IMG/VR virus record: IMGVR_UViG_3300005980_000006
Span: 1-41,378 of that record
Strand: one strand, 5' to 3'
DNA: 41,378 bases
Origin: a virus
Taxonomy: Duplodnaviria > Caudoviricetes
How positions within the stretch are numbered: position 1 is the first letter of the stretch; each line of letters starts with the position of its first letter. Shown piece by piece: positions 1,034 through 41,107 of this stretch. The notes under the pieces are model-generated. The model did not search any database. It was not told where the DNA came from and was given only the letters and a program-made list of their open reading frames with translations. A program made the translations under genes and the position numbers.

Positions 1034-1644
1034 TTGATTTCTCCGATTGCTTTGGTGGCAGCTGCTAACGCTATTTCTAATCCTTCGTTTTCAGTGCGTA
1101 GTGTTTCGATTTCTTTAACGACTTCAGCACCATTTTTATCTACCGCAATGCTGTACAAAATATTCATGCGTAGAACTAGGGTGTTAAGGCGACATCCTTT
1201 TGCGATTGTTCCGTGACCCACTTTAATATCGCAAGGTAATTTCCAGGACAAAGGATCAATAGATTCTGGTGATAAGATCGAGAATCCATTCTGATGAATC
1301 ATCATGCAGAAGTTCGCAACGTCAACAGGATCGCCTTTTTGAACATGCTCGATCAGCATTTGTGTCAACGCTTCAGCACTAGCTGTTTGCCATCCGCTTC
1401 GGCCTTCGTCGCGTTTCTTATCTAACTTAGTCATCATTGCTTCGGAGAATGCGTCGAATGCGATTAGGTCGTGATCGCGATCGTTCAAGACGTAGCAGTC
1501 ATCACACGCCGCCATTATTTCTTTGCGCGTGCGCGTATCGCCAAATGAAGGTCCGCAGTTCATCGTACAACGTTTAACCGTAGGCTGACTCTTCGCACAC
1601 GTGCAACGTCGTCCTTGGTTACGGTCGTGTGTGCATTGGCTCAT
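1030..1644 (-). CDS. Eaa/Ead-like mosaic early protein (KGDPVDVANFCMM motif, MazG-like helical domain)
   Basis: Motif recognition; Cys-rich N-terminus; coupled in operon. Confidence 0.6.
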   Translation of the reverse strand: MSQCTHDRNQGRRCTCAKSQPTVKRCTMNCGPSFGDTRTRKEIMAACDDCYVLNDRDHDLIAFDAFSEAMMTKLDKKRDEGRSGWQTASAEALTQMLIEHVQKGDPVDVANFCMMIHQNGFSILSPESIDPLSWKLPCDIKVGHGTIAKGCRLNTLVLRMNILYSIAVDKNGAEVVKEIETLRTENEGLEIALAAATKAIGEIK

Positions 1645-3437
1645 GCTGCACCTGCCGTTTCTTCGTTTGCAGAGTGTGCTTTCTTTTTGATGCTGAGTGT
1701 CGGCCGCTTAACTGGTGTCGCATCAACTGGCTTATCCAGATCTACGCGGAACTGTTCGAGATCGATGCCCTCAGCGTTGGCCATGCCGATGAGTGTGTGG
1801 TATTCGCCTGTGTCGGATGGGTTCATCCATGACACGCTGAATGCTTCGCCCAGGAGTAAATCAAGCATGACGTTAAGAACAGCATCTTTGTTTGCTTGAT
1901 CGATATAGGCGATTACGGCCTCATCAGATCCGCTTGTTCCGAATGGGTAAAGGTCTGCCAACATATCGTCAGGAATTGCGTAGGAACTGAGTAAATTTTT
2001 AGTCAGCTCACGCAGTGATTCAACGGTGAGGTTGTTGAATCCAGTTAAACGGATGCGCTTGTACAGTGCTACGCGAAATTTAGTTTCTTTCTCGGCTTTT
2101 GCTTTCGCGAAGTCTTCCCGCTTCAGGCGTTCGATGTATGGGTCGTAATAGGTCGTTGATAAAGTCGCTCCGCCGATGTTGACATCGACTTCAGATTGAC
2201 TGTCAGCTTCATCATCTTGTGTCTTAGTGGTTGCTTCTGCACGCTCCTCGCCACGGTTGAATGCTTCAACTCCGGATGCGCACAGGCTAAGATCTTCGAG
2301 TAAATTCTGGATTTTCTGTGTCTCGTAAAGCTCTATGAGAGTCCCGCATTCTGTTTTAGCATACGCATCAGCTGGCGGGAATTTGTCTGTTGTGATGAGT
2401 GCGTAGATTGTGTTGTTTTCGAGATTGCTTCTAGCACGTGGAAAAGCGCGCAAAAAAGTATTTTTTGTGACATACAAGTTATTTGCATTTACTGCAGATC
2501 TCAAAGCCATTTCGGCAAGTTTCCCTTGAAAAACTGGAATGTTTTGTTTTTCCAGTTGTAGGATTTTTGCATTCAGAGTTGCAGCCTTTTTCTCTGCAAA
2601 ACAGTCTGGATTTGTGCAGATGTTTTTTCCAATGTCGGTAAAAATTTCTGGCTGGTTGCCAGTCCGCATTGGACACTTAATACAACTTGGAGAATCGATA
2701 AGCTTCGCATCTTTGGTATCAAATGGCGCATCATCCAGATCCAGTGTGTAGTAAGTTTCCAGATACTCTTTCGCTTCACGCGATGACATTGGTTCGTTGG
2801 AATCGTCTGTCCCCATGATGTGACGCATGGCCTTAACTTGTAGTGTTGGGACAGGGATGCGTGCAACATATAAAGCAATAGTTGAGCTGAACTTACGATT
2901 TAAAAAATCATCGTGTAATGGTTCTGCCAGCGAGCATAATTTCAGTCGTCCGTAAATGTAGCTACGGGATTTATTCAGCTCTGTAACGAGCTGATCGGCG
3001 CTATAACCATGCGCAAGCATCAACGCCTGATAGCCGAGCGCTTCCTCCAGTTCGTGCGGATCTTCGCGCTGCAAGTTTTCAAGGATCTGAATTTTCGCAG
3101 CTTGCAAATCAGTCAGATTGCGAATCATTGCGGGAATGGTTGTGACTCCCGCGATTTTGGAAGCGAGGAAACGGCGTTCGCCGGCGACAATCTCATAAAT
3201 CTCAGGTTCAGCTTCTGTCGGGGTAACTGTGCGAATTAATATAGGCTGTGCAACGCCTATGTCTTTGATACTTGCTGCCAGTTCCGTAAGCTTCAGCTGA
3301 TCGAAGTGTTTGCGGTTTGTTTTTGAGATGCGAATCAGATTCAGTGGGATGACTTCAAATCTACCTTTATCCATCACAAGTTCATCAACAACGATAATTG
3401 GATCTGCAACAGCGACTGCTTTCTTTTTAGCGACCAT
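1641..3437 (-). CDS. ParB/RepB/Spo0J-family protein with long C-terminal extension
   Basis: LAASIKDIGVAQPILIR, YEIVAGERRFLA, ENLQREDPHELEEA, HTH; CxxC...CxxxxC cluster. Confidence 0.88.
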   Translation of the reverse strand: MVAKKKAVAVADPIIVVDELVMDKGRFEVIPLNLIRISKTNRKHFDQLKLTELAASIKDIGVAQPILIRTVTPTEAEPEIYEIVAGERRFLASKIAGVTTIPAMIRNLTDLQAAKIQILENLQREDPHELEEALGYQALMLAHGYSADQLVTELNKSRSYIYGRLKLCSLAEPLHDDFLNRKFSSTIALYVARIPVPTLQVKAMRHIMGTDDSNEPMSSREAKEYLETYYTLDLDDAPFDTKDAKLIDSPSCIKCPMRTGNQPEIFTDIGKNICTNPDCFAEKKAATLNAKILQLEKQNIPVFQGKLAEMALRSAVNANNLYVTKNTFLRAFPRARSNLENNTIYALITTDKFPPADAYAKTECGTLIELYETQKIQNLLEDLSLCASGVEAFNRGEERAEATTKTQDDEADSQSEVDVNIGGATLSTTYYDPYIERLKREDFAKAKAEKETKFRVALYKRIRLTGFNNLTVESLRELTKNLLSSYAIPDDMLADLYPFGTSGSDEAVIAYIDQANKDAVLNVMLDLLLGEAFSVSWMNPSDTGEYHTLIGMANAEGIDLEQFRVDLDKPVDATPVKRPTLSIKKKAHSANEETAGAA

Positions 3438-5074: not shown

Positions 5075-5117
5075 AATATACGCGAACGAATAATAAAAAA
5101 CAATACGCGAATGGATA
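5075..5117 (-). promoter_or_regulatory. PL promoter with two operators (OL)
   Basis: TTGTTT(5103-5098)-17bp-TATATT(5080-5075); operators ATACGCGAACGAATA 5078-5092 and ATACGCGAATGGATA 5103-5117 match those at cI/cro. Confidence 0.85.
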
Positions 5118-5200: not shown

Positions 5201-5599
5201 TTACTGTATCGATTTTGGATCCTGTGTCGTCATTGGGGCAACCACGGTCCCTTGGCGGCTACCCGATCCTGAGCTCGTGTAATTAATTTTTGTTAGGATG
5301 CCATCTTTGTTAATAAAATACATCGCAACGGTGTGCGCGTAATCCGCTCCGCCAGCAAATAATCCGACAACAGGAATAAAAGTTGCTGCTTTTGTTTTGT
5401 ACTGATAGCCAGAGTAGCTAATGATTTTAGTGTTGCCTGTGATCGATACTGACGTTGGGTTTCCAAGGGTATTGATAATTTCTTGCTCGGTTGTAACGCC
5501 TTCTTTGAATGCTGTTGCGGCTTGTTGCGAAACCTGAGTTCCAGAAGATGCGCATGCGGCCATAGTTAAAGCCAGCAAAATCGTGAGAAGCTTCTTCAT
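5201..5599 (-). CDS. Outer-membrane lipoprotein, SmpA/BamE-like fold (candidate superinfection exclusion)
   Basis: Signal peptide with lipobox LTMAAC; FKEGVTTEQEIINTLGNP motif. Confidence 0.75.
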   Translation of the reverse strand: MKKLLTILLALTMAACASSGTQVSQQAATAFKEGVTTEQEIINTLGNPTSVSITGNTKIISYSGYQYKTKAATFIPVVGLFAGGADYAHTVAMYFINKDGILTKINYTSSGSGSRQGTVVAPMTTQDPKSIQ

Positions 5600-5682: not shown

Positions 5683-6591
5683 TTAGTCGACGCTTGGACG
5701 TCGAACAGGAGTGTGTCTTGAAACCATTTGTTTGATAAATTCAGTGGTAGTTGGGCTATTTCCTCCGATTTCTTTAATGCAAATATATAGTTGGTTCTTT
5801 GCCCACTCGTCCGTCAAGTGAGTAATGTGCACTGGGTGCGTCGCACGATATACATTTGCCGCACTTTCAATAGTAATCGCGATTCCGATGTCTGTTGACG
5901 CGGCGTAATACGCTTGTACATCAAAGCTCGGACAGATGATGGGGCGTTTCAGCGAGATATTCATTTTTGCTGCGATGTCGTCGATGATAGGTGTTATGTG
6001 TTCAAGCGTTTCCGTGTGAATCATGGGCCATTTGATAGCATTTATAAACGCAACCTCCGTGCTGTTAGACAAGGGGTGTGATGTTGACATCATCAAACAA
6101 ACTCGCTCGCAACGATAGGGAATTAACCGTAAACCGGCGACATGTGGATCGCCGGCTATTAGTCCAGCATCGATTTTTCCTGCAATTACGTTCTGTATAA
6201 TTTCTGTAAAACTTCCCCGCTGAAGGCGTATTTTCAATGCAGCATTGTTTAGCAGCATTTGTTGTGTGACGAGCGGTAAATCTCGTTTTAATAGAACTTC
6301 ATCAGCCATCAGGTCGAGATGTGGGCCGCGAAGGCGGCCCAATTTGGTTTGTAGATTGGTGAACTCGCGCTTCATTATTTCGCAATGTTCAGCGATTTCT
6401 CGCCCTTCGGTCGTGAGCGTTAAACGTCCTTTTCGAGTAGCGACGGTATAGCCAATTTTATTTTCGATTTTGTCTAGGCGTTGAGAAACAGCGGATCTGC
6501 TTATTCCCAGCCGCTGGCCTGCGGCGGTCAAGCTAAATTCGCGTGAAATTGCAAGAATCGTGTCGATGTCTTTTGGATCTAGTGCTAACAC
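5683..6591 (-). CDS. LysR-family transcriptional regulator
   Basis: SLTAAGQRLGISRSAVSQRLDKIENKIG HTH, LTTEG, substrate-binding domain (GKIDAGL); 302 aa. Confidence 0.93.
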   Translation of the reverse strand: MLALDPKDIDTILAISREFSLTAAGQRLGISRSAVSQRLDKIENKIGYTVATRKGRLTLTTEGREIAEHCEIMKREFTNLQTKLGRLRGPHLDLMADEVLLKRDLPLVTQQMLLNNAALKIRLQRGSFTEIIQNVIAGKIDAGLIAGDPHVAGLRLIPYRCERVCLMMSTSHPLSNSTEVAFINAIKWPMIHTETLEHITPIIDDIAAKMNISLKRPIICPSFDVQAYYAASTDIGIAITIESAANVYRATHPVHITHLTDEWAKNQLYICIKEIGGNSPTTTEFIKQMVSRHTPVRRPSVD

Positions 6592-6667
6592 AGTTACTTA
6601 TAGAAAATGATACCTGTGTGCAAGTCTGTACGCAATCGCATACTTTTGAAATGTAGAAACTGCAAGA

Positions 6668-6739
6668 CGTAAGCAGTTCTGGCGTCATCGTAAGTAAAAC
6701 TTAACAAGATGTGACAAAAACTTGGTTATATTAATAACC
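6668..6739 (+). promoter_or_regulatory. Putative LysR box and separate palindromic operator at the small-ORF promoter
   Basis: Perfect T-N11-A dyad TAAGT-AAA-ACTTA 6691-6703; CGTAAG repeated at 21-bp spacing (6668, 6689); -10-like TATATT 6727-6732 inside palindrome GGTTAT-ATTA-ATAACC 6724-6739. Confidence 0.55.
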
Positions 6740-6772
6740 CATGTACATTTTGAAATAAAAAAAGGCAACGTT

Positions 6773-6931
6773 ATGGATGAGGATGAGCAAATCGCGGAGT
6801 GGCGTTTAATACAGCAAAAAATGAATCCGGAGGCTTTTGCAATGCTGCTTGATTTAGCGCGAGAATGGTTGAATGACTATCCTCGGGAAAACGAACCGAA
6901 GCTAAGACTCATCGTTGGGTCGCGCCGTTAG
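6773..6931 (+). CDS. Small 52-aa protein, candidate antirepressor
   Basis: AAGG RBS; divergent from lysR, convergent with and overlapping the 3' end of repressor 2. Confidence 0.6.
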   Translation: MDEDEQIAEWRLIQQKMNPEAFAMLLDLAREWLNDYPRENEPKLRLIVGSRR

Positions 6932-7273
6932 CTGCTTGGGTACAGTTGAGCATGTGGTTTTTATTAGCGATTTACCCATGTCATTTGCTTCTCGAAATTG
7001 AGTTAACAAACGAAGTTCTTCAGCAGTCACATACACAAGACTGATATCAGAAGAGTTATTGGGTTTTAAATTTTCGCCAGTCACGATCCAGTCGATGCTA
7101 ACCTTACACGCATTAGCTATTGCAGAAAGATTTTCGATGCTCGGTTGGGATTCGGATTTCAGTATCCTAACTATGCTTGAGTTTGGGACGCCAGACAATC
7201 GGCCTAATTCGGACTGACTTCTGATGCCAGCAAACTTCATGGCGATATCAATTCGGTCAGCTATTGTGGTCAT
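6902..7273 (-). CDS. XRE HTH repressor paralogue 2 (no S24 peptidase domain)
   Basis: IADRIDIAM...SQSELGRLSGVPNSSIVRIL...VSIDWIVTG; C-terminal LVYVTxEE motif shared with cI. Confidence 0.85.
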   Translation of the reverse strand: MTTIADRIDIAMKFAGIRSQSELGRLSGVPNSSIVRILKSESQPSIENLSAIANACKVSIDWIVTGENLKPNNSSDISLVYVTAEELRLLTQFREANDMGKSLIKTTCSTVPKQLTARPNDES

Positions 7274-7281
7274 GCGATCGA

Positions 7282-7310
7282 ACTATACGCACGCCCCACG
7301 TTGCACTCAA
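7282..7310 (-). promoter_or_regulatory. Sigma70 promoter of repressor 2 (near-leaderless transcript)
   Basis: TTGAGT-17bp-TATAGT, with ATG 8 nt after the -10. Confidence 0.65.
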
Positions 7311-7352
7311 GGATCTGTCCGAATGTGGTTGTGTATCCCCGAAATCGGCAAA

Positions 7353-7766
7353 TCAAGAAGCGGGTTTCAGTATTCCTTCTAATTTTTTTCGATCTTTAGG
7401 TAGTTTTGTTGCAGCGGTGTAGATAAGTTTTTGCTGCATTTCAGGTGCTTCTCGGTATGACTGAAGAATATCCATTTCTTCATCAGTTACGTAGACCAAG
7501 CGGATTTTTGGTTGTACTACTTCGACAACTTTCTTCTCAACCTGCTCCATAGGTTCTGCTGGTTGTTCGCCGCTCAGCCATAAGAAGCTCACTCCACAGG
7601 CTGCAGCTAGCTTTTTTAGCGTCTCAGTTTCAGGCCCTCGTTTTCCACCGCCTTTCAGGATCCTATTTACCGTGGGCTGTGGAATTCCTGCCGCAACAGC
7701 TAAGGCTTGTTGCGTTTTATACCCAGCAGTTTTCATTGCCTGATCTAGGCGATCTCCAATATTCAT
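7353..7766 (-). CDS. cI: CI-like immunity repressor (true start MNIGDRL; no peptidase domain)
   Basis: HTH TQQALAVAAGIPQPTVNRIL; divergent from cro across the operator array. Confidence 0.85.
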   Translation of the reverse strand: MNIGDRLDQAMKTAGYKTQQALAVAAGIPQPTVNRILKGGGKRGPETETLKKLAAACGVSFLWLSGEQPAEPMEQVEKKVVEVVQPKIRLVYVTDEEMDILQSYREAPEMQQKLIYTAATKLPKDRKKLEGILKPAS

Positions 7767-7772
7767 GCGTGA

Positions 7773-7849
7773 AATATACGCGGATGAATAAACATCGTGC
7801 AAATTTTCATCCATTCGCGTATTGACTAAATTATCCATTCGCGTATATT
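7773..7849. promoter_or_regulatory. OR region: PRM, PR and three operators
   Basis: Operators 7776-7790 (inverted), 7808-7822, 7832-7846 (TATCCATTCGCGTAT); PR TTGACT-16-TATATT; PRM TTGCAC-18-TATATT on the minus strand. Confidence 0.85.
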
Positions 7850-7857
7850 CCTGTTTT

Positions 7858-8061
7858 ATGGAAAACATAACTTCACTCCTACGGGAGATAAAAACACGGT
7901 CCAGGATGAGCGAAAAGCAAATTGCTGCTCGTCTTGGAGTCTCTCAGCCCACGGTTAACAGAATGTTGCGTGGGCAGGACCGATGCCTTAGCACAACACT
8001 AATAGGCATCCAAAACCTGCATCGCGAAATTTCTACTCAGTCCGAAAATGCAGGGCCATGA
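7858..8061 (+). CDS. cro: Cro-like HTH protein (start MENIT)
   Basis: SEKQIAARLGVSQPTVNRML; recognition helix QPTVNR shared with CI. Confidence 0.85.
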   Translation: MENITSLLREIKTRSRMSEKQIAARLGVSQPTVNRMLRGQDRCLSTTLIGIQNLHREISTQSENAGP

Positions 8062-8524: not shown

Positions 8525-9010
8525 GTGATCACACTAAGACAAGCTTATTTAAAAATAATTAAAGCTTTCCCAGGCGGTTGGGATGCAATGTCCGGGGCTC
8601 TCGGGATGACGCGTGATGCTTTAGAGAATCGAATATTTGAGAGACGCGGTCAAGATTTAACAGTCCAAACGGCTCTGATGATGCAATCGTTTACAAATTG
8701 CAGAGCGTTTGCTGAAGTAATTGCTAACGAAAGTGGGGGTGTTTTTATCCCAATGCCTCAGGGGGGGGCTTTGGGCAAAGATGTGGCTAGTGAAAAATTT
8801 CTCGAATTAATCGCAGAGATCGGTGAGCTTTCTGAAGAGTTTAAACATGCTGTTGCAGCTCACGAAATCAGCGGGAAAGACCAAGTACGAATCAATAACA
8901 TCATTGATCGGATCAATCGCACAACGTTTCAATTCCATTCGATTTTAAAGCAGTTTTACTGCCACAAAACGAAAGCAGAAACTGATGCTGCGGAGGTGAA
9001 GCATGCCTAG
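8525..9010 (+). CDS. CII-like / YmfL-family regulatory protein
   Basis: AFPGGWDAMSGALGMTRDALENRIFERRGQ motif; position after cro. Confidence 0.8.
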   Translation: MITLRQAYLKIIKAFPGGWDAMSGALGMTRDALENRIFERRGQDLTVQTALMMQSFTNCRAFAEVIANESGGVFIPMPQGGALGKDVASEKFLELIAEIGELSEEFKHAVAAHEISGKDQVRINNIIDRINRTTFQFHSILKQFYCHKTKAETDAAEVKHA

Positions 9011-9443
9011 ACCACAAGGACCAAGAGCCGGCTCTGCAGCCCAAATTGCAATCTGTCGAATTGTTGAATTGGGTGGCCATGCGAGTTTCAAACAGATCGT
9101 AGTGCATTTAAAACCTGAACAACAGCCGCTCAAAGCTTTTCGTCAATTAGTACTCAATCCTTTGGTCGACCATGGCTATGTAAACATCGTGAATGGCGAT
9201 AGTTTTAAAGCAACCAGTATGGGTAAGGACTACGCGTCACGTTACATTTCTCACTTGCTCCCATCGAATCAATGTTACGAAGGACAGGTTGCGCTTAGTC
9301 GCAATTTTAAGCCTGCACGTGAATTGAATTTAGCGCGGCATCGTGCTGTCGCACCATTCCGTCCAGGGGCCGATGATCACTTACGTATTCCGTCATTAAT
9401 GGGTTCGACGCGTAAATTACCAAATGGCGAGGTAATTGAATGA
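9003..9443 (+). CDS. Hypothetical protein, possible winged helix
   Basis: Coupled ORF before the primase; RPGADDHLRIPSLMG tail. Confidence 0.7.
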   Translation: MPRPQGPRAGSAAQIAICRIVELGGHASFKQIVVHLKPEQQPLKAFRQLVLNPLVDHGYVNIVNGDSFKATSMGKDYASRYISHLLPSNQCYEGQVALSRNFKPARELNLARHRAVAPFRPGADDHLRIPSLMGSTRKLPNGEVIE

Positions 9444-12250
9444 GTTTGACACCAGAAGAAATGTGTCGTGCACAAATGATTGACGCGGGGTACAACAACC
9501 TTCCAGTCGGCCATCCTGTTTTAGACGGGGCAATCAAGCGTTTTGGTAAAGGTAAAAAGAGCTGGTACGTGGCGCGTAAAGTCGAGCTTCCATCAGGAAA
9601 AGTTACCGTTAGCGGTGCGTTTGGAACCTACCATGGTGACGATAACGGCGCGATCAAGTTTCGCTGTGATGTTGAGCGCATGTCTGATGCTGATCGTGCT
9701 GCTTTGATCAAAAGACAGAATGAGTTAGCTCGTATCGAGCAGGAGAAAGAAGAGCAAAAACATCAACTGGCAGCTAACCGTGCGCGTGATCAGTGGGGTA
9801 GGGCTATCGCATGCAACGATAACGAACCGCATAGCTATTTGGTTAAAAAGCAGGTGCTGTCGTATGGTTTGCGAGTAGACAGCGACGGCAAGCTGCTGAT
9901 GCCGTTGTGGTCGGACGGTGGTTGCGGCGCTGATCTGCGCGGGCTGCAGAAGATTGATAGCAAGGGCGATAAACGCTTTAACGATGGCATTAACAAGGTC
10001 GGCGCGGCTTATCACCTGGGTGATATTCCTGCCGATGCTGAGCTGATTAATATCGGTGAGGGTTATGCTACGTGCGCATCAATGCTGCTTGCAGTACCTG
10101 GCTCATTTGTTGTTTGCGCCATCGATGCGGGTAATTTGATGCCTGTGGCTAAGCATATCCGTGCCACATATCCGAACGCGCATATTCGCTTTCTCGCGGA
10201 CGACGATTACCTGTTGTTGCCTCGTTTCATCGAGCGCTTGCGCGAGCAATTCAATCTCTCCCTGCCGGAGCCTGTGATCGATGGCGTGACCAGATCATAT
10301 GAGGCTGTTGATGGCGAAAACGTCGATGTAACTGCATGGTGGCGTAAAGATGCACAGGGAATTGATTACATTGAATCTGACGTACGCAAAGGCCGCAAGC
10401 AGCGTACAGAGTCATTCAAAAATGCAGGGCTGTATCGATCATACGAGGCCGCAGCAGAGATAGGGAATGCCTCTGTCATTTATCCAATATTTAGCGCCCG
10501 TAATGGCGAAAAGTGGACCGACTTTAATGACCTTCATGTACTCGAATCCCTTGACGCGGTAGCGTCACAAATCAATGCTGTTGCCCCTACTGAGCTGATG
10601 GCGTTTACGTCTCCCGCACCCTCTGCTAGAGTATTGCCGCTATTTTTCCCTGCTGCGCAGCAGCCAAGACAAGATTCTGACGTTGATGATATCCCTGCAT
10701 GGGTTGCGGATGCCCCACAAGTGGATTCGCTTCCTCCCCCGTCCCCTCCTGAAGATGCTGCGGAGATTGTTGGTTTGGTGCCGATGACATGGGCGCTTTC
10801 GCATTGTGCGTTGATTCAAGGGTCAACGGATATATGGGATTCGGTCAATAAGCTGCGAATCAAGAGAGCGGCATTTGTCGCGATGGTTGGTAAAGATGCT
10901 GCGAAGCAGTGGGAGTCTCATCCTGAGCGGCGTTCAATTAGCCCGCGCAATCTACCTAAAATTATTCGCGGCGTAGCAAAAGCGGCAGAGGGGGCGGGGG
11001 ACGATGGCATGGCGAAGATGTTAGATCGCTATACGTTGCTGTATGGGACGAAGACCGTATGGGACGCTGAGAAGAAGCTTGTCATCAATTTTGATGCGAT
11101 GGCACTGGCACGTGGTGAGTTAGCGACGCGCTGGCTACAACACCCTCTGAGGCAGGAAAAAGACCACGATAAGCTGGTGTTTGATCCGACGCAGAGGGTT
11201 GATCCGGACACGCATATCAATATGTTTGAGGGGTTTTTGATTAAGCCACGACATGATGATGCAAAGGCCGAACTGGTGTTGCGCCTACTGGAAAGTCTAT
11301 GTTCTTCAGAGCCTAACGGGGCTGATATTTTTGTGTGGGTGCTGCGCTGGCTGGCTTATCCATTGCAGAATCCGGGCGCAAAAATGCAGACGGCATTGCT
11401 GTTTTTTGGGAGTAAGCAGGGAACGGGTAAGAGTCTGTTCTTCGAAGGAGTGATCAAGCCTATCTACGGCAAGCATGGTGCAACCGGTGGACAAAATCAG
11501 TTAGACGCGGCTTATTCTGCTTGGCGCTCTCAAAAGCTCTATGTGCTGTTTGAAGAGATTTTGTCTCGACAAGATAAGTACAGCTCCTTCGGCTTGGTGA
11601 AGCATTTGATCACGGGACGTGACGCACCTATCACGCAGAAATTTAAAGATGATCGCTTTGAAGAAAATCATTTGAACGTGGTGATGCTGTCGAATGAATT
11701 TCAGGCCGTTCCTATCGAACCGGAGGATAGGCGATTTTTGGTCGCGGAAGCGTTGAATCACCCAGATCCTGAATTGCTTGCTGCGCTGACAAAAAATCAG
11801 AAACATGGGGAAGTTGTCCCTGAAATTGTTGAGGCATTTTATGACTTTTTGCTGCGGTATCCGCTAGGTGATTTTACGCCGCACACGAAGCCGATCATGA
11901 CGCAATCGAAGGAGCGAATGATTGAGTTTGGTCGGCCAGATTGGGAGGTGTTTTATCTCGAATGGAAACTAGGTGCTTTGGCGTTTCCCTATTGCTCGTG
12001 TATCGCAGAGCATTTGTACGAGGCGTATGAGATGTACTGCTCAAAATTTCATTACCGCGCACTATCGATGAAGAAGTTCTCTGAGCTGATTAATAGCCAG
12101 ATCAAGCGAGATCGGCAATGGGTAACGCTGGGCGTACAGAAGAAGCGGCTCCGTACTGTTTTTCACGTTGAGTGCGATACCGGAGAAACACTGTCTCAGC
12201 AGTGTAATACGTTCATGCTGGCGGCCAACATTAAGGATGAATCGAAATGA
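9440..12250 (+). CDS. DNA primase-helicase (TOPRIM plus DUF5906/D5-like NTPase)
   Basis: GEGYAT, AIDAGNL, ADDD, TDFNDL TOPRIM motifs; Walker A GSKQGTGKS; EDRRF. Confidence 0.9.
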   Translation: MSLTPEEMCRAQMIDAGYNNLPVGHPVLDGAIKRFGKGKKSWYVARKVELPSGKVTVSGAFGTYHGDDNGAIKFRCDVERMSDADRAALIKRQNELARIEQEKEEQKHQLAANRARDQWGRAIACNDNEPHSYLVKKQVLSYGLRVDSDGKLLMPLWSDGGCGADLRGLQKIDSKGDKRFNDGINKVGAAYHLGDIPADAELINIGEGYATCASMLLAVPGSFVVCAIDAGNLMPVAKHIRATYPNAHIRFLADDDYLLLPRFIERLREQFNLSLPEPVIDGVTRSYEAVDGENVDVTAWWRKDAQGIDYIESDVRKGRKQRTESFKNAGLYRSYEAAAEIGNASVIYPIFSARNGEKWTDFNDLHVLESLDAVASQINAVAPTELMAFTSPAPSARVLPLFFPAAQQPRQDSDVDDIPAWVADAPQVDSLPPPSPPEDAAEIVGLVPMTWALSHCALIQGSTDIWDSVNKLRIKRAAFVAMVGKDAAKQWESHPERRSISPRNLPKIIRGVAKAAEGAGDDGMAKMLDRYTLLYGTKTVWDAEKKLVINFDAMALARGELATRWLQHPLRQEKDHDKLVFDPTQRVDPDTHINMFEGFLIKPRHDDAKAELVLRLLESLCSSEPNGADIFVWVLRWLAYPLQNPGAKMQTALLFFGSKQGTGKSLFFEGVIKPIYGKHGATGGQNQLDAAYSAWRSQKLYVLFEEILSRQDKYSSFGLVKHLITGRDAPITQKFKDDRFEENHLNVVMLSNEFQAVPIEPEDRRFLVAEALNHPDPELLAALTKNQKHGEVVPEIVEAFYDFLLRYPLGDFTPHTKPIMTQSKERMIEFGRPDWEVFYLEWKLGALAFPYCSCIAEHLYEAYEMYCSKFHYRALSMKKFSELINSQIKRDRQWVTLGVQKKRLRTVFHVECDTGETLSQQCNTFMLAANIKDESK

Positions 12251-38452: not shown

Positions 38453-38469
38453 AAATGTGGGGTTTTGTG

Positions 38470-39330
38470 ATGGGAAGGAAAATAAATTTTGACGTGTCAG
38501 GCGTCAACATACGTGTTCACACTGTGCATGAGCCTTTGGAATACGTGGCGTTGTGGGAGGCAATGAATAAAACCCGCTCATATATCGTCCATGCAAATAA
38601 CGCTTTAATGATTGGTGATTTGAGGTACGCTGATAAAGATGATCCTCATGGTTTGATTTTAGGCAATTTTTATCGATTTCTTGAAGTCGATCTTGAAAAC
38701 CCTTGGTTTGATATTGATAAGCATAAAAAAGCTGCAGAGGAAGATGTTGATAAGGTCAAAATACCCGTCGCGCTAAAGCCTAATTTAACTGAAATACCTT
38801 ATGTTTTTAATCCTAAAACACATCAGTTATATTTTGTATCCAAATCATCATTGGCTTCTGCATCACCACATTTAGTGCATAAATTGCTTTCCGCAATATG
38901 TCAAAAGCGTGAGATTTCAGACAAATTTAATAAGGTTGACCTTACGATTCTCACTGATAAGGGTAAAGTCGAGGAAATGTTAAATTGGCCGGAGATTAGA
39001 AATCTTTCGATTAAGATAGAGCGGCCAAATCCAGTTGATCAAGATGATGAGCGCGCGGTTTATGACCGCTTGCGCGCGCGGCGGTTGGAGTCAGAGACGA
39101 CTATATATAAAAAGGCGTCAGGTGAGTCGAGTATAATTCCTGACGAAGAGATGAAGGCTCGTGCAAGAATTGCTGCAAATAATGGATTGGTTGAGGTAAG
39201 CGGGAAGAATTTACAGCGCGTTTCTGACAAGGCAAGTTCATCTGATTTCCCGCTTAAACTTAAAGGGATTTACGATAGTAAGCTTCAACCTTTATTGGAC
39301 GCACTGAAAGCAGTTATTTTAAATATTTAG
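38470..39330 (+). CDS. DUF4747-like protein
   Basis: Recalled family pattern (NIRVH...Y..L, PWFD, P.LKPN, I.RPNP, A..NG.V.V.G); AT-rich moron. Confidence 0.7.
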   Translation: MGRKINFDVSGVNIRVHTVHEPLEYVALWEAMNKTRSYIVHANNALMIGDLRYADKDDPHGLILGNFYRFLEVDLENPWFDIDKHKKAAEEDVDKVKIPVALKPNLTEIPYVFNPKTHQLYFVSKSSLASASPHLVHKLLSAICQKREISDKFNKVDLTILTDKGKVEEMLNWPEIRNLSIKIERPNPVDQDDERAVYDRLRARRLESETTIYKKASGESSIIPDEEMKARARIAANNGLVEVSGKNLQRVSDKASSSDFPLKLKGIYDSKLQPLLDALKAVILNI

Positions 39331-39334
39331 CAAA

Positions 39335-39937
39335 ATGACTAAAAATGATGAAGTAAAAAGTAATCTTCAGATTTTGGTGATGGCTTGGAAAATTACCGGG
39401 GGTTGGAAAGCTGTTGTTTTCTCCGCTGATTTTTGGGTCTCCATTTTTATATGGGTGTTGTGTGCTCCATATTGGGTGAGTTTTCCATGGTGGGACCAGG
39501 TTATTTCGGTTTTTCCAAATGTTCTGGGTTTTACTTTGGGTGGATTTGCAATTTTTTTAGGGTTTGGAAGTGAGTCATTTAAAAGGGTTCTATCGCACGA
39601 AGATGAGATGAAATCGCCATACCTTAGTGTTAGTGCAGCTTTCCTAATATTTTTATTCTTTCAAATCATAACGCTACTATACGCATTCGTTGCAAAATCG
39701 CTGCATATTCCCACCCCACTGTGTTTATCTCCTTATCTTGAGTGGATAAATAAAGCAGAAGTGATCTCGTCGGGCATTGGTTACTTCTTGTCTGTTTATA
39801 GCCTTAATTTAGCGTTTAAGGCTGGAATGAGAGTGTTCAGATTAAGCCGTTGGTATCATGCTTTAATTAATGTTGAGATAGCAGAGGATAAGGTTAAAGC
39901 CGCGGCTAGTGCTTCGACAAAAAACAGCGCAGTGTGA
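39335..39937 (+). CDS. Multi-pass (about 4 TM) membrane protein, partner of the DUF4747-like gene
   Basis: WWDQVISVFPNVLGFTLGGFAIFLGFG motif; 4-nt gap to the upstream gene. Confidence 0.8.
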   Translation: MTKNDEVKSNLQILVMAWKITGGWKAVVFSADFWVSIFIWVLCAPYWVSFPWWDQVISVFPNVLGFTLGGFAIFLGFGSESFKRVLSHEDEMKSPYLSVSAAFLIFLFFQIITLLYAFVAKSLHIPTPLCLSPYLEWINKAEVISSGIGYFLSVYSLNLAFKAGMRVFRLSRWYHALINVEIAEDKVKAAASASTKNSAV

Positions 39938-40084: not shown

Positions 40085-41107
40085 CTATGGCAGTATAGTG
40101 TGCAAGTCTTTCGCTTTTAATTGCACGTACCTGCTCAGCATTTTCCAGCTTCGGTGTCCGGATATGAGTGCTACTTGTTCGATTCTGTATCCCTTTTCAA
40201 ATAACCGGCTAATCCCCTCGTGGCGAAGATCGTGAAAGCGCAGATCTTCAATTTTGAGTGCCTTGCATGCTCTCGGGAATAATGATGACGGTGTGTTTGG
40301 GTTGCCGGGGAAGATCAACGGTTCGTCAGGGATGCGTGGTTGCGCCATCAAGATGTCGTAGCTAGTTCCTAGTAATGGTACTTCCTGATTGTTTCCTATT
40401 TTTTGAGTAGGATGTTTTCTATCTCTGATTATGATGGTTTTATTTTCGTGATCTATATCGTCCCATCTTAGATTTAGTATCTCACCTTGGCGCATGGCGG
40501 TTTCAATAGCAAAAAGGATGAGAGATTCCATCGGAACCTTTTGACGAACCTTCGTCGTGAAGTAAAGGCAGATGTCATCAATTTCCTTTTGCGTTGGGCG
40601 GCGTTCGCGTTCCGCTGATTTTTTTGACACGCCTATATATTTGAGGCTGGCAGCTGCCTTTGATGTTATTTCTATATCAATTGGAATTTTCCAAAGTTCT
40701 TTCACAATGCGAAGTACAGTGCCCAGATGTGCAAGGTCAACGAGAATCGTCGGACCCTTAACAGTTTTTGCGCGGGCGTGAGCCCAAGTTGTTAGCAATT
40801 CTTCCGTTAAGGCATCGAGAGATAAATTACCATAGAGCTTTTTCCAATATTTGAGGGACGTTTCCTTCGTTCTGCCGATCGGAGTGAGTGACGCAATCTC
40901 TGTTAGGTAGCGATCAATAACTTTTCCCAAGGTAAATCCAGCCAAGCTTCGGATATCTTTGAATGACATTGCATCAATACTAGCTTCGACTTCCCGCGCC
41001 CAGGCGAGTGCTAAAGACTTTGTTTTGAATGACTTGGTGATAGACTTATGGCCTTTGCGGCGAATGTCCGCGACCCACGAGCCATTTCGTTGACGGATTG
41101 ATGCCAT
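40085..41107 (-). CDS. int: Tyrosine integrase, dusA-associated type
   Basis: TAMRQGEI, RKHP, FHDLRHEG, SGHRSWKMLSRY; divergent from dusA. Confidence 0.95.
   Translation of the reverse strand: MASIRQRNGSWVADIRRKGHKSITKSFKTKSLALAWAREVEASIDAMSFKDIRSLAGFTLGKVIDRYLTEIASLTPIGRTKETSLKYWKKLYGNLSLDALTEELLTTWAHARAKTVKGPTILVDLAHLGTVLRIVKELWKIPIDIEITSKAAASLKYIGVSKKSAERERRPTQKEIDDICLYFTTKVRQKVPMESLILFAIETAMRQGEILNLRWDDIDHENKTIIIRDRKHPTQKIGNNQEVPLLGTSYDILMAQPRIPDEPLIFPGNPNTPSSLFPRACKALKIEDLRFHDLRHEGISRLFEKGYRIEQVALISGHRSWKMLSRYVQLKAKDLHTILP

Follow-up and report, generated by a model that had tools for sequence, protein, structure and literature searches.

Known sensor-antirepressor switches and the lysR locus

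The logic of a sensor, a small antirepressor and a short repressor is already known from the arbitrium, VqmA/Qtip-type and Gifsy systems, and the phage sensors described so far respond to quorum signals or to phage peptides. Here, we describe a probable module of this kind in the virus record IMGVR_UViG_3300005980_000006 (Duplodnaviria; Caudoviricetes), which was analysed over its whole length of 41,378 bases ("the window"). In the immunity region, the gene for a LysR-type regulator (lysR) is divergent from a small open reading frame (ORF) of 52 amino acids (aa), which converges on two repressor genes, rep2 and rep1. The module is conserved in related prophages, and comparison of their sequences suggests that it is best read as a LysR-wired sensor-antirepressor switch.

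The closest precedent is the arbitrium system of Bacillus phages (AimR-AimP-AimX-AimC-AimL), which the original prediction missed. It also has a phage ligand-binding regulator, and a small antirepressor gene that is arranged tail-to-tail with the gene of a short non-cleavable helix-turn-helix (HTH) repressor. According to the available text of the arbitrium study (bioRxiv 10.1101/2025.11.23.689978), the product of a small ORF that overlaps the repressor gene by 30 bp binds the repressor, blocks DNA binding, and acts as an antirepressor in experiments. As far as the accessible descriptions go, arbitrium repressors have 80-140 aa, a LexA site is present in some members only, and the repressor is attacked at its C-terminal domain in a SinI-like manner. 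The overlap is 30 bp in phi106 and 30 bp in the window, and a cro-like gene lies beyond in both. In contrast to arbitrium, the sensor of the window is a LysR protein encoded divergently from the small gene, there is no AimR receptor or AimP peptide gene (the 181-bp lysR/small-ORF spacer contains no peptide gene), the host is Gram-negative, and the repressors are in tandem. Moreover, the small protein of the window family resembles the repressor C-terminal domain at the level of family sequences. LysR is absent from the main text of the arbitrium paper.

The module is also similar to the VqmA-phage/Qtip, TF72, TF63 and XRE-LuxR/smORF modules (PMC10432266), in which a phage regulator is counter-oriented to a small ORF. 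In the accessible sections of that paper, which deals with linear plasmid phages, the smORF inactivates the repressor independently of the SOS response, the factors are of the LuxR or XRE type, the genes are located near repA/telN or par, the cleavable cI is also damage-responsive, and the smORFs have no homologues. Unlike these phages, the window is an integrating prophage with a LysR regulator, with the module in the immunity region, and with no cleavable repressor. The main text of PMC10432266 does not mention LysR; its supplementary gene tables could list LysR factors. Short repressors without autocleavage are further known from DicA-like repressors and from the Gifsy pairs GfoR/GfoA and GtgR/GftA, the latter being relieved by a small protein (PMC3121763, parts available). 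The Gifsy antirepressors are LexA-controlled and encoded outside the immunity region, whereas the small gene of the window lacks an SOS box and is adjacent to the repressors. Finally, SinR/SinI of Bacillus subtilis consists of an XRE repressor whose C-terminal domain has two helices and of a small protein that mimics this domain in free form, and has a two-paralogue form with SlrR (SlrR/SlrA), but it is a chromosomal biofilm switch and not a phage module.

The original prediction knew of no described LysR-based version, and our literature search found neither a LysR-driven sensor-antirepressor system nor a twin-repressor form. A 2026 review (PMC13492144) makes no mention of LysR in its main text, and the LysR passages in the available part of PMC13603594 concern secretion systems. 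We found no description of the LysR input, of the exchange of LexA for LysR upstream of a single antirepressor family, or of the twin repressors.

We favour the reading, with a probability of roughly 0.6, that a SinI/AimX-like antirepressor has come under the control of a phage LysR instead of LexA, which would result in a lysis switch that operates without RecA and LexA. The prophage LysR would control the promoter of the facing small gene by binding to two T-N11 sites, and upon a change of ligand would activate this promoter, which has a weak -35. The hairpin protein would then bind to the non-cleavable repressor(s) at the C-terminal domain used for oligomerisation and, like SinI and AimX, stand in for a repressor C-terminal domain, so that PR and PL would open and lysis would begin. 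Rep1 would be the CI that acts on OR/OL. Rep2, which is driven by a promoter of its own, carries the same type of C-terminal domain and is read antisense to the small gene, would most likely be an autoregulated decoy or partner that sets the threshold.

Conservation of the module and exchange of its parts

We infer that the host is Undibacterium or a near relative, because the named LysR homologues (56-71% identity) come from Undibacterium, as does the LysR of locus L002 (Undibacterium aquatile, 72% identity to the window LysR). In 84 genomes of the genus, a LysR profile had 21 matches, of which 20 were looked at (G004:C34 was left out). Fourteen carry the complete module, two (L039, L045) face a different small ORF, and four are chromosomal, so that the linkage of lysR to a small ORF and twin XRE genes, on which the original prediction depended, has stood up. 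With L003 and L005 excluded as duplicates of L002 and the window, the complete module is found at 17 prophage loci (window, L002, L004, L006, L027-L038, L042), with LysR identities of 22-96%. Two repressors are present at 17/17 of these lysR loci, and the small ORF overlaps the rep2 end at all 17, by 4-68 bp. Conversely, 14 of the 16 small ORF-twin repressor modules in the genus have LysR. A reverse search with the small-ORF profile had 19 matches: the 14 module loci, which are members of the profile and thus recovered by construction, two loci without lysR (L118, L119), two satellite-like ORFs and one repressor C-terminus.

Outside the genus, relatives are more distant. A search of 401 genomes of the family (including the unpublished genome G164, which was merely counted), with 5 candidates scored per genome, confined LysR matches of at least 335 bits to 5 genomes of the host genus; the next scores were at most 249 bits, and the 25 next-best loci that were looked at have no XRE repressor nearby. 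No close relative of LysR or the small ORF was found among GenBank phages, where the best identity is 26%. A profile search of 50%-identity representatives yielded a few dozen stronger matches, listed without genomic context, and the LysR clade must therefore be bigger than the loci placed here.

The small gene is thus the constant element, and what drives its promoter (LexA, LysR or another input) is exchangeable, which is the strongest argument for the small protein as the induction factor and for LysR as its input. At 11 loci, a small ORF converges on a repressor gene in the absence of lysR. In four of these (L081, L083, L087, L102), which represent the LexA-wired counterpart of the window module, the start is preceded at a distance of 43-152 bp by a TACTG-N10-CAG SOS box. 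The exact SOS box is present in 0/17 lysR spacers vs 4/11 lysR-less loci (Fisher p 0.016, for loci that are not independent); one lysR spacer has a single-mismatch string that misses CTG. The absence of a CTGT-N8-ACAG box from the window, noted originally, was reproduced, although only 0.41 boxes would be expected there by chance. Before the small ORF, the best match to the 20-bp consensus has 9 mismatches, and when the SOS pattern was relaxed, neither the window nor two related provirus records contained a credible box. We considered that LysR might be used because the host has lost LexA, and ruled this out, since lexA and CTGT-N8-ACAG boxes were found in 5/5 genomes of the host genus.

Co-variation was analysed on 15 loci (L006 and L033 were dropped). 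Spacer similarity follows LysR (rho 0.60 for the N-terminal and 0.63 for the C-terminal part, p 0.0005), and does not follow the small ORF (-0.04) or rep2 (-0.01). The similarity of the small ORFs, on the other hand, is correlated with that of rep2 (rho 0.57) and rep1 (0.68). Within rep1 it goes with the C-terminus (0.61) and not with the N-terminus (0.13), and it does not follow LysR (-0.10). Three small-ORF classes (A, B and C) are paired with three repressor types, and the window, L002 and L004 have one common spacer with three different small-ORF classes. In the class of the window, the rep1 C-terminus is retained while the rep1 DNA-binding domain is exchanged. The locus is thus built from two exchangeable cassettes, one comprising lysR and the spacer, the other the small ORF, rep2 and the rep1 C-terminal domain.

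Alternatively, lysR might be cargo in a variable left slot and regulate host genes or cargo, with its position next to the small ORF being incidental. The slot left of the immunity genes does hold changing cargo, L118 and L119 have cargo in place of lysR, and LysR similarity does not follow the repressors. This explanation is nevertheless very improbable, as lysR stays divergent from the small ORF at 160-270 bp even at 22% LysR identity while the genes behind it vary, and as the small-ORF -10 region is part of the conserved spacer that moves together with LysR. In the window, the gene 3' of lysR is a lipoprotein-like cargo gene (5201..5599, minus strand, phrog_3135), which lies outside the switch in the variable slot and is swapped for other genes in most relatives. 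In L027, this slot contains a third XRE gene that resembles class B rep1 and may provide extra immunity.

The small protein and the two repressors

The gene order lysR(-), small ORF(+), rep2(-), rep1(-), cro(+) and the coordinates of the original prediction were recovered in full. The small ORF (6773..6931, plus strand) is preceded by AAAAGG at 6760, and its 3' end shares 30 bp with the end of rep2 (6902..7273, minus strand). Between the window and L006, synonymous and non-synonymous codon changes number 17:4 in the small ORF, 119:12 in lysR, 29:9 in rep2 and 43:9 in rep1. From this excess of synonymous changes, the four are judged to be real genes under purifying selection.

In an AlphaFold2 model (mean pLDDT 87.5), the small protein is a predicted two-helix hairpin, with helices 3-16 and 19-35. 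The small ORFs belong to no Pfam or PHROG family, a word-index search found no relative besides the query itself, and an ESM Atlas search was uninformative (best score 0.77). A lone viral-contig match (L001) was spurious. However, small-ORF profiles match the C-terminal domains of unrelated XRE proteins (L083, L120), the rep2 profile matches free small ORFs, and the small ORF and the repressor C-terminus align in register in a profile-profile comparison (E 0.0016, probability 16%). The small protein is probably a diverged free-standing repressor tail, a likeness that had been left out of the original account. Its candidate role as an antirepressor draws indirect support from the co-variation with the repressors, from the predicted hairpin fold, and from the versions with an SOS box elsewhere.

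Both repressors contain HTH_3 only (rep1, 137 aa; rep2, 123 aa) and fall within the size range of ~120-150 aa that is typical of non-cleavable repressors of the Gifsy type. The claim that they lack S24 was borne out, and extends to the entire record, which has no S24 match. Rep2 is modelled as an HTH, a loose linker, and helices 84-95 and 98-110, which form a two-helix C-terminal domain. The same domain type is present in rep1 (7353..7766, minus strand), which is located at the CI position. In a fold search with rep2, SinR from the SinR/SinI complex was the best full-length match and the 4th overall (rmsd 14, with the domains placed differently). SinR was reached by HTH sequence as well as by fold, while there was no sequence match to SinI. 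The match of rep2 to DicA is weak and below cut-off.

A 15-bp motif, TATCCATTCGCGTAT, occurs in three copies (7776-7790, 7808-7822, 7832-7846) in the OR-like region (7776..7846) between rep1 and cro, around a PR found by promoter scan (TTGACT-16-TATATT, 7822-7849). Two more copies (5078-5092, 5103-5117) form an OL-like pair at the leftward promoter (5078..5117). The motif tracks the rep1-type HTH, being present in L006, L029 and L042, and upstream of rep2 in L002; for this reason rep1 is taken as CI. A rep1-rep2 heterodimer is not needed to explain the asymmetric operator, since the motif follows the rep1-type HTH alone. The rep2 promoter (TTGAGT-17-TATAGT, 7310-7282) and an upstream palindrome, CCGAAATCGG (7339-7348), which is a candidate rep2 autoregulatory site, span 7282..7348 (minus strand). 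This is the sole exact copy of the palindrome in the window, and two copies precede the 65% identical rep2 of L037. Both repressor genes appear leaderless (starts at 7273 and 7766), with the -10 located 6-8 bases before the ATG, likewise in many relatives. Rep2 would presumably act as a buffer for the small protein or as a partner of rep1.

The small protein, or its antisense transcript, might act on rep2 only, or only at the post-infection decision, with rep1 being relieved otherwise. The overlap of the small ORF with rep2 at every locus, the separate rep2 promoter and the likeness of class C small ORFs to rep2 rather than rep1 C-termini would fit this possibility. It is distinctly unlikely all the same. 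In single-repressor relatives (L081, L084, L102, L144), the small ORF faces CI itself, and it co-varies with the rep1 C-terminus even where the rep1 N-terminus has been swapped. Moreover, the small ORF is under protein-level selection, and recoding of the overlap made no difference for AimX (bioRxiv 2025.11.23.689978, available text).

Free copies of the repressor-tail domain are also found in other contexts. One to four tandem copies are present in satellite-like elements (L082, L088, L089, L091, L094, L104, L105, L133-L136, L138, L140, L143, L145, L146), which have no facing repressor and may derepress helper phages. In L086 and L092, a longer protein that is encoded behind an AlpA-like gene begins with this domain. 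The satellite-like elements, together with the action in trans of Gifsy and Fels-1 antirepressors (PMC3121763, parts available), could suggest that the small protein acts mainly on other prophages or incoming phages, in cross-induction or against immunity. As the small-ORF sequence class follows the neighbouring repressors of its own locus, this appears exceedingly unlikely.

Several observations weigh against a LysR-driven antirepressor switch. Co-variation of neighbours can arise from physical linkage, although distance alone does not explain the correlations, since a greater distance separates the small ORF from the rep1 C-terminus than from the start of LysR. Profile-profile probabilities are just 2.5-16%, the C-termini of the window repressors reach just 2.1 bits (rep1) and -1.0 bits (rep2) against the small-ORF profile, and cognate pairs of small ORF and C-terminus are no better than non-cognate ones (23.9 vs 23.3). 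The likeness to repressor tails is clear only in class C. Three of the four SOS cases belong to one genus, and the remaining 7/11 lysR-less pairs have no SOS box, and so other inputs must exist. With the record being 83% complete, a LexA-controlled gene could be located elsewhere. In L039 and L045, the phage LysR faces a different small ORF. Finally, L118 and L119 keep the small ORF, rep2, rep1 and cro without lysR or an SOS box, and no LysR profile match at E 1e-40 was found in their genomes. LysR is therefore not required by every member, a point that the original prediction missed. All immunity genes of these two loci are close to those of L042; in the place of the lysR and spacer of L042 they have a terminator and, behind it and ~60 bp before the small ORF, an 18-bp palindrome.

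LysR, its candidate sites and the possible cue

The lysR gene (5683..6591, minus strand) encodes a full-length phage regulator of 302 aa with an HTH and an effector domain, which scores above the Pfam cut-offs for HTH_1 (PF00126) and LysR_substrate (PF03466). Solved LysR structures match it at 1e-28 or weaker. In a tree of 33 LysRs, 16 chromosomal proteins and all 17 mobile ones are split by a 100/99 branch, and the phage LysRs are on long branches.

Of the 181 bases in the lysR/small-ORF spacer, 168 are identical to L006, with silent changes in 32-40% of the flanking small-ORF and lysR codons. The perfect T-N11-A dyad TAAGT-AAA-ACTTA reported earlier is present at 6691..6703, adjoining the -35 position of the small-ORF promoter, and CGTAAG, reported as a second half-site upstream, occurs at 6668 and 6689. 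A further T-N11 site (6670..6682) is degenerate in the window and perfect as TAAGC-N3-GCTTA in L002 and L033; the right half of the 6691 dyad, AAAACTTAAC, is retained in L002, L004, L006 and L033. The two sites, ~42 and ~63 bp upstream of the predicted small-ORF transcription start, are candidate regulatory and activation sites for LysR. Other LysR clades have different dyads in the same spacer position. The predicted small-ORF -10 (TATATT, 6727-6732) lies within a second dyad, GGTTAT-N4-ATAACC (6724..6739, plus strand), with a poor -35 at 17 nt, and a promoter scan found no consensus promoter there. On the opposite strand, the predicted lysR promoter (6623..6651, minus strand) consists of TTTCAA (6651-6646), 17 nt and CAGACT (6628-6623). 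This pattern, which was derived from the same 17 spacers, is in place in 13 of them, compared with a mean of 0.25 and a maximum of 4 in shuffles. As 9% of shuffles of the window spacer have a perfect 5-bp T-N11-A dyad, neither the dyad nor the absence of an SOS box is telling alone, and the support rests on the comparison with relatives.

Two other features of the spacers may be mentioned. In L037, a perfect 39-bp palindrome (17-bp arms) is located at the presumed LysR site. A third element, AATACWTTGTTACAAC-like, lies between the -10 and the small-ORF start in the window (6740-6760, degenerate), L004, L028-L031, L035, L036 and L038, and was found by pattern in 7/17 spacers. It may be an operator or a translational element. 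As a host regulon site it was rejected: it had 51 matches vs 23 for the control in 5 genomes, and the 13 that were opened were nearly all within coding sequence.

LysR might also control the antirepressor gene without an outside cue, in ligand-free form, as a repressor, or in response to internal stress or a DNA-damage by-product, in which case damage induction would be possible. The prophage has neither S24 nor an SOS box, although a response to damage is the rule among prophages. DNA damage still induces many arbitrium phages in which no LexA site precedes aimX (bioRxiv 2025.11.23.689978, available text), and the long branches of the phage LysRs also speak for this possibility. We consider this fairly unlikely, because the effector domain is full length in 16/17 loci, with invariant residues kept and strong purifying selection, and because a weak -35 with two T-N11 sites is the usual layout of LysR-activated promoters (PMC11495319, accessible sections).

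If LysR does respond to a ligand, a small organic acid would be a weak guess. The chromosomal proteins that score best with the phage LysR profile are often encoded beside CoA-transferase and CitE/RipC-like genes (both below curated cut-offs), as well as putative hydratase and acyl-CoA dehydrogenase genes. According to the available text of PMC13491972, CoA-transferase and CitE/RipC-like neighbours are the setting of the itaconate-responsive ItcR1. The likeness to the ItcR/RipR regulators is one of gene neighbours and not of directly compared sequences, and the ligand is not transferable, since a long, fully supported branch separates the phage LysRs.

The window as a whole is a lambdoid-type prophage record (linear, CheckV completeness 83%), with genes for an integrase, a ParB-like protein, terminase, major head protein and endolysin. 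The integrase (40085-41107) supports an integrating prophage and not a linear plasmid-like phage. Beyond the switch, the cro-like gene (7858..8061, plus strand) is followed by a CII-like gene (8525-9010) and a replication gene (9440-12250). The early left operon of this integrating phage encodes a ParB-domain protein of 598 aa (1641-3437), which is kept in many relatives. A low-GC two-gene cargo ahead of the integrase (38455-39937; phrog_10040 and phrog_20580, no function assigned) is possibly a defence module. In L033 (G056), a deletion joins the first half of lysR to the ParB-like frame and the right arm is also shortened, with the small ORF, both repressors and cro still intact. In L039 (6129-6398) and L045 (genomes G004 and G030), phage-clade LysRs face a different small ORF of 78-89 aa in another type of mobile element, beside a large DarB-like/structural protein and tail-related genes, and the LysR cassette may have been reused there.

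As a tentative but conceivable wider proposal, betaproteobacterial prophages may have captured and diversified a metabolite-sensing LysR in the place of LexA before a repressor-tail mimic, with the second repressor as threshold, so that each would be woken by a small-molecule cue of its own instead of DNA damage. Genome G062 contains three prophages with the module (L032, L035, L036) and two distinct LysR types, and is cited for phage-specific cues; it offers a natural test of signal partitioning. The switch should be amenable to experiment, as hosts are available in culture (the source of L002 is a named strain of Undibacterium aquatile) and the promoter comprises just 181 bp. Swap experiments could draw on the LexA-wired and LysR-wired forms in which one antirepressor occurs naturally, and the divergent phage LysRs would form a small library of new ligand sensors. 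If the reading is true, the phage LysR-antirepressor family would extend phage sensing to metabolites.

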